The notes beneath the pieces are model-generated. The model worked only from the letters and a program-made list of their open reading frames with translations, was not told the origin of the DNA and made no database searches. A DNA stretch of 9,826 bases from a virus (taxonomy: Duplodnaviria; Heunggongvirae; Uroviricota; Caudoviricetes): the IMG/VR virus record IMGVR_UViG_2619619132_000009; one strand, 5' to 3'. A program made the translations under genes and the position numbers. This document shows, piece after piece, positions 6,221 to 7,112 of this stretch. Every line of letters begins with the position of its first letter. Position 1 is the stretch's first letter.

Positions 6221-6421
6221 ATGTATCGAAACATACGGTGCCGACATTGTAACAAGCTACTGGCACGAGCCAGCTTCAGTTATCTGGAAGTTAAATGTCC
6301 GCGCTGTAAAACCCTCAATCAAATCACATCTCAGAGCGCCACAGAGCACCCCACATACACAAGGAAATCCTGTCGTGGGGAACAGAAAGCAAGTTACATC
6401 CCGTATCATCAGCACGCCTGA
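6221..6421 (+). CDS. com: Com-like zinc-ribbon translational activator (phage Mu Com family)
   Basis: [35 protein letters not shown]... has Cys at 7, 10, 26 and 29 (CxxC-N15-CxxC) and strong resemblance to recalled Mu Com (MKSIRCKNCNKLL...IRCPRCK). RBS AGGAGG lies 10 nt upstream; the 3' end overlaps the next gene. Confidence 0.75.
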
Positions 6422-7112
6422 ACTTATTCACTATAACGACAATATCGTCGGTTATGGCTCCCGTGAGTTACGGGTTGAGACAATAAGTTGCTGGCTGGCC
6501 CGGCTGGTCGTCGTCAATAAACATTACAGCCATCGTTTCGTAAATAATTCCTACCTTCATCTGGGCATATTTTCAGAACGGGAGCTGGTTGGCGTAATGC
6601 AATGGGGTTATGCCCTTAATCCAAACAATGGTGCACGCGTCGTAACTGGCACGCAGAACCGCGAATATATGGAGCTTAACCGGTTATGGCTGCATGACTG
6701 TATGCCGAGAAACTCCGAATCAAGGGCAATCAGTTACGCGCTCAAACTAATCAGACAACTTTATCCGCAGGTGCAGTGGGTTCAGTCGTTTGCAGATGAG
6801 CGTTGTGGCTGTCTTGGTGTCGTGTACCAGGCAAGCAATTTTGATTATGTAGGCAGTCATGAAACAACATTCTATGAACTTGATGGCGAGTGGTATCACG
6901 AGATTTGCAAGAATGCAATCAAACGAGGAGGACAGCGAGGTGAACATCTGCGGGCTAATATCGACAGAGCCAGTGTTCATAAATTCCGTCAGTTTCGTTA
7001 CATCCGGTTTCTGGACAAGAGAGCCAGAAAACGCCTTAACACAAAGCTATTCAAAGTCCAGCCTTACCCAAAACCACAAACAGTTAAAACTGGTTTGAAA
7101 GAGAGTGAATGA
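6375..7112 (+). CDS. mom: Mom-like DNA-modification enzyme (phage Mu Mom family); start uncertain, GTG 6375 proposed
   Basis: Long ORF in the +1 frame relative to com. Downstream motifs ([50 protein letters not shown]) resemble Mom-family proteins as recalled. GTG at 6375 is preceded by AAGGA at a 9-nt spacing and lies inside the com 3' end; this gives 245 aa. Confidence 0.65.

Follow-up and report, generated by a model that had tools for sequence, protein, structure and literature searches.

The com-mom gene pair at positions 6221–7112 of the IMG/VR virus record IMGVR_UViG_2619619132_000009 (Caudoviricetes) is very probably an ordinary, intact module of the phage Mu type, as carried by Mu-like prophages of Escherichia coli, with the identity and the chemistry of the pair in Mu. 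The whole stretch of DNA that we analysed, 9,826 nucleotides long, is referred to as the window. In it, com and mom form the right end of a transposable, Mu-like E. coli prophage of the Sp18 type. By analogy with Mu, the module would in all likelihood serve to modify adenines in phage DNA against restriction enzymes. We are less certain that the window's own copy is expressed than we are of its identity and chemistry. The module is already known: DNA-identical copies are annotated in public genomes.

Both proteins match their families far above chance level. Mom matches the Pfam family PF25680 at 260.2 bits (cut-off 27.1, E = 1.6e-77), with all of the profile covered (positions 1–202 of 202), and the PHROGs family 'Mom-like DNA modification protein' at E = 2.8e-83. 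The sequence used for comparison with Mu was the right end of the phage (NC_000929). Against the 231-residue Mu Mom, the alignment of the window protein spans 233 residues and gives 78% identity and 87% similarity, with one gap of two residues (E = 5e-140); the DNA across mom is ~72% identical to Mu. The solved structure of Mu Mom (PDB 8bv8_A) was also matched (E = 2.4e-123), with residues 5–233 aligned to 4–232. This Mom had been described as a distant homologue with similarity in motifs only. That description is wrong, because the identity of 78% runs the full length of the protein, the structure is matched, and ten functional residues are kept.

Com matches the Pfam family PF10122, Zn_ribbon_Com, at 48.2 bits (cut-off 22.9, E = 7.5e-13). 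It also matches the PHROGs family 'gpCom control of modification' (E = 2.9e-13) and is 45% identical to Mu Com (E = 2e-14). The CxxC-N15-CxxC zinc ribbon by which the original prediction had recognised Com is borne out by the profile, and its cysteines are Cys7, Cys10, Cys26 and Cys29. The comparison with Mu Com and Mom that the prediction had proposed, by profile and by alignment, is thus significant for both proteins, and Pfam, PHROGs and RefSeq agree on the same two overlapping coding sequences of a Mu-type module. In the DNA-identical copies, RefSeq places WP_014334043.1 at the coordinates of com and WP_000528246.1 exactly at 6375–7112. The product name of the latter is 'Mom family adenine methylcarbamoylation protein' or, more recently, 'tRNA(Gly)-dependent adenine aminoacyltransferase Mom'. 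The product name of WP_014334043.1 is 'Com family DNA-binding transcriptional regulator', which differs from the published description of Com as an RNA-binding translational activator. A sequence search of the PDB detected no Com protein chain, and NCBIfam holds no model matching Com or Mom.

The GTG at which mom starts lies 47 nt ahead of the stop codon of com, inside the 3' end of that gene, as had been read. Its counterpart in the alignment is the GUG at which the classical 231-residue Mu Mom begins; the published residue numbering uses a 241-residue form (PMC13219725). The RefSeq entry for Mu Mom has 241 residues as well, counted from an ATG ten codons upstream of the GUG, and the window has no counterpart of that ATG. 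The lengths given earlier, 245 residues here and 231 in Mu, are correct. A longer isoform of Mom was also considered: the reading frame of mom stays open from 6180 across com, 65 codons upstream of the GTG, and contains an in-frame ATG at 6213. This candidate was rejected as probably due to chance, because in relatives that are 97% identical the open stretch is just 27 codons long, and in others its length is highly variable.

The RNA part of the Mu mechanism is conserved in the com-mom message, as judged from its sequence and predicted fold. In Mu, the hairpin bound by Com lies directly 5' of an inhibition hairpin that holds the mom GUG; the target is a short hairpin with CC(N)2-3GAG in its loop, often paired with GAG(N)2CC (PMC6483171). 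The window carries both of these reported recognition motifs. Folding of positions 6322–6395 gave a minimum free energy of −14.3 kcal/mol and the same two-hairpin architecture as the Mu fold. In the predicted Com target, the CC-N3-GAG motif covers the last base of the stem and the loop, which is closed by a C-G pair. In the inhibition hairpin, an inner stem takes up the Shine-Dalgarno sequence of mom, AGGA, and the GUG start lies within the 3' arm. Energy z-scores alone are not significant for hairpins this short, and we compared the pairing in an alignment of 12 distinct relatives, taken from genomes and viral contigs. Compensatory changes occur at each of the four pairs in the Com-target stem. 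Of its cells, 97% are paired, compared with 23–57% when the partners are slid by one to three columns; the only exceptions are a C.A in the second position of the stem, in the window and two relatives. The inhibition stem is 100% paired but invariant, and therefore offers no covariation.

These elements are consistent with the translational activation by Com that the original prediction had expected, and they suggest how the module would work. During lytic growth, a transcript crossing com and mom would be made, and com would be translated from the ATG at 6221. The zinc-ribbon protein would then bind the small hairpin at 6336–6349, with CC-ACA-GAG in its loop, which lies directly 5' of the hairpin at 6349–6380 that hides the ribosome-binding site and the GUG of mom. 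Binding would open this second hairpin, so that Mom is produced only late. Mom, predicted to have a GNAT fold, would draw glycine from Gly-tRNAGly and attach it to adenine N6 in double-stranded DNA (in S-A-S contexts in Mu); the glycyl group would rearrange to give N6-carbamoylmethyl-adenine, and many restriction enzymes would be blocked. The binding, the timing and the chemistry are all modelled on Mu. That chemistry was worked out in 2026: with Gly-tRNAGly as the donor, Mom places glycine on N6 of adenine in double-stranded DNA, after which the glycyl group rearranges to carbamoylmethyl (PMC13219725). This refines the adenine chemistry quoted earlier for the module.

Could the window proteins nevertheless act differently from those of Mu? 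In Mu Mom, R111, S124, D149 and R151 are essential or nearly so, and H58, Y59, Y159, W181 and the dimer residue W48 are important (PMC13219725). With the residue list taken from that study and the numbering of the 241-residue Mu protein, these nine residues and Y28 are all identical in the window Mom (10/10). The original prediction had raised the possibility that the modification chemistry or the target sequence specificity differs from that of Mu, and 22% of the Mom residues do differ overall. Some of the differences fall in the helix-turn-helix-like insertion (Mu residues ~175–209), which is essential for activity and is modelled to contact the major groove of DNA (PMC13219725): the insertion aligns without gaps, with 28 of 35 residues identical and 7 different. 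Most of the added length relative to Mu is a 12-residue C-terminal tail after ...QPYPK, absent from Mu Mom, with two further residues near the N-terminus. Mom proteins of relatives carry short tails of differing sequence at the same spot, a feature common in the family; the added length is thus a variable tail and gives no sign of a different chemistry. Every residue tied to catalysis and dimerisation is kept, the 78% identity is interrupted by a single two-residue gap, and nothing points to another acyl donor. With no positive sign of a different chemistry in the sequence, we consider a changed chemistry or specificity very unlikely, although the seven differences in the insertion leave a small probability of a shift in specificity. 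The RefSeq name of the protein identical to the window Com would make Com a DNA-binding transcription factor instead of an RNA-binding translational activator. Mu Com binds the mRNA of mom and switches on its translation (PMC6483171; PMC3378877), and the RNA target motif and both hairpins are conserved in the window, which makes a transcription-factor role scarcely credible. We therefore regard the window Com, by analogy, as a predicted translational activator of mom.

Coordinates of the com-mom module, its surroundings in the window and the features of related loci that are discussed in the text
Feature	Position	Strand	Details
com	6221–6421	+	ATG 6221, TGA 6421; 66 aa; zinc-ribbon protein
Shine-Dalgarno sequence of com, AGGAGG	6205–6210	+	10 nt before ATG
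mom	6375–7112	+	GTG start; 245 aa; overlaps com by 47 nt; predicted GNAT-fold, tRNA(Gly)-dependent adenine N6 aminoacyltransferase
Predicted Com target, GAGCGCC-ACA-GAGCACC	6334–6350	+	hairpin 6336–6349: arm GCGC 6336–6339, loop CACAGA 6340–6345, arm GCAC 6346–6349
Translation-inhibition hairpin	6349–6380	+	CCCCAC 6349–6354 pairs with GUGGGG 6375–6380; encloses mom Shine-Dalgarno sequence AGGA 6362–6365
Perfect 9-bp inverted repeat, AATCGATCG-N7-CGATCGATT	6153–6177	none	two Dam sites, GATC 6157 and 6170, 13 bp start to start
Late-promoter-like motif, CCGCAAA-N22-TATTCT	1985–2019	+	just downstream of gin, where Pmom sits in Mu
Prophage right end, attR side	7113–7240	+	terminal 128 bp; host junction 7240/7241
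Interrupted Ag43/Cah autotransporter adhesin gene	7241–9200		3' two-thirds; 652 codons remain downstream
IS1	4997–5762	+	9-bp target duplication CAAAGTGAT at 4988–4996 and 5763–5771; between cargo and com
Cargo block between gin and com	2055–4726		684-aa SASA-esterase/DUF6645 protein, then DUF1378, DUF826
gin, serine invertase	1397–1969		profile match
Tail-fibre assembly gene	385–906	minus	
Inverted repeats	1–142 and 1178–1319		142 nt, 95% complementary; flank 1035-nt segment; left repeat reaches window edge
Late-promoter-like motif sites, related prophage L004	4868–4902, 20832–20867, 29019–29054	minus	motif scan
Lambdoid mom leader, related loci (not window)	L013 ~2385–2490; L014 ~1790–1930; L071–L104 ~560–690		
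tRNA-Gly(UCC), related loci	L087 435–508; L089 510–584; L095 506–579; L102 506–579		ARAGORN

Downstream of mom, the prophage ends in a terminal segment that contains three direct copies of G(G/T)ATCAAA, at 7159, 7194 and 7216, presumed to be transposase-binding sites. The complete related prophage has three repeats of the same sequence at its opposite end, in inverted orientation. The position of the host junction is given by two comparisons: identical copies elsewhere stop matching at 7240–7241 and then run into unrelated genes, and homology to an intact Ag43 gene begins at 7240. The prophage is inserted ~890 nt into a 2847-nt Ag43/Cah gene, whose best intact relatives are 96.7% identical. 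This insertion site was seen in no other record among the matches listed.

At the opposite side of the window, positions 1–1319 are an invertible tail-fibre region resembling the G segment, and gin lies beside it. The IS1 element is inserted within a small minus-strand gene (phrog_27209; WP_000571916.1 in relatives), and none of the other copies of the prophage that were compared has it. The 44-kb complete related prophage (L004) encodes a transposase, an AAA ATPase in the MuB position, Kil, Gam, a Mor-family activator and lysis, head and tail genes, and closes with an invertible tail-fibre segment, gin and, at the very end, com-mom. The transposase A/B genes, present there, fall outside the window. 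The 5-bp target duplication of this complete prophage is not unambiguously readable from one insertion. RefSeq lists a 'tRNA-OTHER' at 21517–21596 of the same locus, on the opposite strand between head genes, where ARAGORN calls no tRNA. In the O157 strain F8798 (L024), a Mu-like prophage with the cargo block sits inside a DUF6645 gene beside holin and lysozyme genes.

The distribution of the module was analysed by a megablast search of positions 6000–7400 against complete E. coli genomes. Coverage of the query reaches 80% or more in 29 genomes. Among the matches listed, at least 15 genomes are 99.8–100% identical, with complete DNA identity (100%) over 6000–7240. The matches end at window position 7240–7241 (7245 in one record) and continue into bglJ, bcsA, citF, flgL, dcyD and other genes. 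Identical copies beside unrelated host genes are as expected for a transposing phage. Strains of O157:H7 carry a variant that is ~94–96% identical. Sp18 of O157 Sakai and similar Mu-like phages are reported to have homologues of Mom and Com encoded at the corresponding position (PMC3299994); Sp18 itself is described as apparently intact, with an invertible host-range segment of its own (PMC2669165).

In its layout, the window closely resembles Mu itself (NC_000929, Mup54/Mup55; close relatives D108 and SfMu). The gene order is the same, gin followed by com, mom and the right end; com overlaps the start of mom, with the GUG in the 3' arm of the inhibitory hairpin; the Com-target hairpin has a CC-N3-GAG loop, and a GATC-N9-GATC dyad lies upstream. 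At 78% identity for Mom and 45% for Com, the known functional residues are all kept. Gin and com are separated by 4.2 kb of cargo and IS1 in the window, in contrast to 94 bp in Mu, and in the segment from the dyad to com, which is 30 bp shorter, the C-activator dyad and the −35 and −10 elements of Mu are missing. Within the module, Com has 66 residues and an N15 spacing between its cysteine pairs, compared with 62 residues and N16 in Mu; Mom has the 12-residue tail that Mu Mom lacks; and the Com-target stem contains a C.A mismatch relative to Mu. The Sp18-type prophages share the arrangement of the window, with gin, the DUF6645 esterase, DUF1378, DUF826, a small minus-strand gene, com, mom and the phage end in this order, and the window copy differs from them by the IS1 in the small gene and by its insertion site in Ag43/Cah. 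In Pseudomonas phage B3, as in the window, the phage end has a DNA-modification gene with a Com homologue upstream of it. The downstream gene in B3 is a DNA adenine methyltransferase (PMC3299994), whereas the window encodes a true Mom.

The region upstream of com contains the likely counterpart of the GATC cluster of the Mu mom promoter, the dyad at 6153–6177, whose function we infer from Mu (PMC3378877). In Mu, Pmom has three upstream GATC sites, and OxyR binds the unmethylated DNA there (PMC3378877). The window has a third GATC as well, at 6088, and control by Dam and OxyR through the dyad would follow the Mu model. The 13-bp spacing of GATC-N9-GATC upstream of com is also present in Mu, Edwardsiella (L006), Symbiopectobacterium (L007) and Pantoea (L018), and the dyad is conserved in the O157 variant. 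A comparison with the OxyR consensus is uninformative: the score of 13/20, the same in the window and in Mu, equals the background maximum in window tiles. The Mu promoter further comprises a 16-bp dyad for the activator C at about −43.5, a −35 element ACCACA, a 19-bp spacer with a T run and a −10 element TAAGAT (PMC2582627).

A different promoter-like sequence, CCGCAAA-N22-TATTCT, is located just after gin and ahead of the DUF6645 gene. In L004 the pattern CCGCAAA-N22/23-TAnnCT occurs at three sites only: before the lysozyme gene, before the protease gene and after gin. The pattern was derived after the sites were seen, and the count is no independent test. It is probably the late-promoter signature of the phage's Mor/C-family activator. 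Near com we found no motif of this type; a weak look-alike at 6103–6113 is not conserved in the O157 variant and was rejected. The motif at 1985–2019 is a possible source of read-through transcription toward com-mom, since no strong plus-strand terminator lies between a motif of this kind and com in IS1-free copies. Conservation of the 95 bp upstream of com persists even in copies where another gene takes the place of the minus-strand neighbour, which argues for a control region belonging to the module itself and against pure read-through. Together, these observations suggest that Sp18-type phages wire mom transcription differently from Mu, and that the activator-dependent late promoter stayed beside gin and now heads the cargo genes.

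We asked whether the window's copy is in working order, and several points weigh against taking it for an ordinary, functioning module. The window covers only the right 7.2 kb of the prophage. Between the GATC dyad and com there is no TTAT-N6-ATAA site for C and no ACCACA or TAAGAT, and a consensus scan of the plus strand upstream of com found no sigma-70-like promoter. A candidate extended −10 element, TGATAAAGAT at 6181–6190, reads TGAGAAAGGC in the O157 variant and was rejected as unsupported. The IS1 lies 450 bp upstream of com, where it could block read-through from 1985–2019. Finally, the C.A mismatch of the window's clade occupies one of only four pairs in the Com-target stem. One explanation that draws on several of these points is that the coding sequences are intact and the module is silent here, a relic without current function, either because the prophage is defective or because IS1 separates the genes from their late promoter. 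It would fit the occurrence of IS1 in the window copy only, the lack of a recognisable promoter directly upstream of com and of the Mu C site, the distance of 4.2 kb to the window's only late-promoter-like motif, and the location of the remaining prophage outside the window. We nevertheless regard a silent relic as rather unlikely: com, mom, their ribosome-binding sites, the RNA elements and the 95 bp upstream are identical to copies in many genomes, that upstream block is kept despite the replaced minus-strand neighbour, and gin and the invertible segment are intact. A tentative alternative, which we hold to be possible though improbable, is that com-mom is no longer driven by a C-activated Pmom of the Mu type: the late promoter at 1985–2019 would head a 4-kb cargo operon (esterase, DUF1378, DUF826), and com-mom would keep the GATC dyad only. 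If so, Mom would depend on read-through of a long late transcript or on a short methylation-gated promoter, and IS1 may cut off the window copy. We retain the identification of the pair as an intact module with the chemistry of Mu at the high confidence stated above.

Among the Mom relatives that we collected, 41 loci have no com. The com-less homologues at L013–L016, L019 and L071–L104 belong to the same enzyme family and are 66–70% identical to the window Mom. The neighbours of one locus, L013, were examined: its prophage is lambdoid, with the Q antiterminator region on one side of mom and the genes for holin and lysozyme on the other. A conserved non-coding leader of ~100–140 nt, located between a terminator-like hairpin and mom, is present at 38 of the 41 com-less loci and at no com-type locus; its core, GTCAYGRGYAYAMC, has the same distribution (38/41 and none). 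Eleven representative leaders share a two-domain fold with compensatory changes. In one domain, GGGY/RCCC closes a long hairpin; in the other, the GGAG ribosome-binding site just before the start codon is paired within a second hairpin. Rfam contains no family matching either this leader or the com-mom region. The leader may stand in for Com as the gate on translation. In four com-less loci, ARAGORN places a tRNA-Gly(UCC) gene directly upstream of the leader and mom. The adjacency is of note because Gly-tRNAGly is the co-substrate of Mom, and the gene could be a supply gene for the enzyme or be there by chance; tRNA genes are common at this position in lambdoid phages.

For the window itself, the finding has little significance beyond correct annotation, as the module is a textbook case of anti-restriction and many E. 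coli genomes already carry annotated copies of its exact sequence. Its Com target is a natural variant, with the C.A mismatch and a perfect bipartite GAG-NN-CC, and could inform work on the recognition of RNA by Com. More interesting than the window module is the lambdoid branch of Mom, with its structured leader and, at times, a tRNA-Gly gene beside it.

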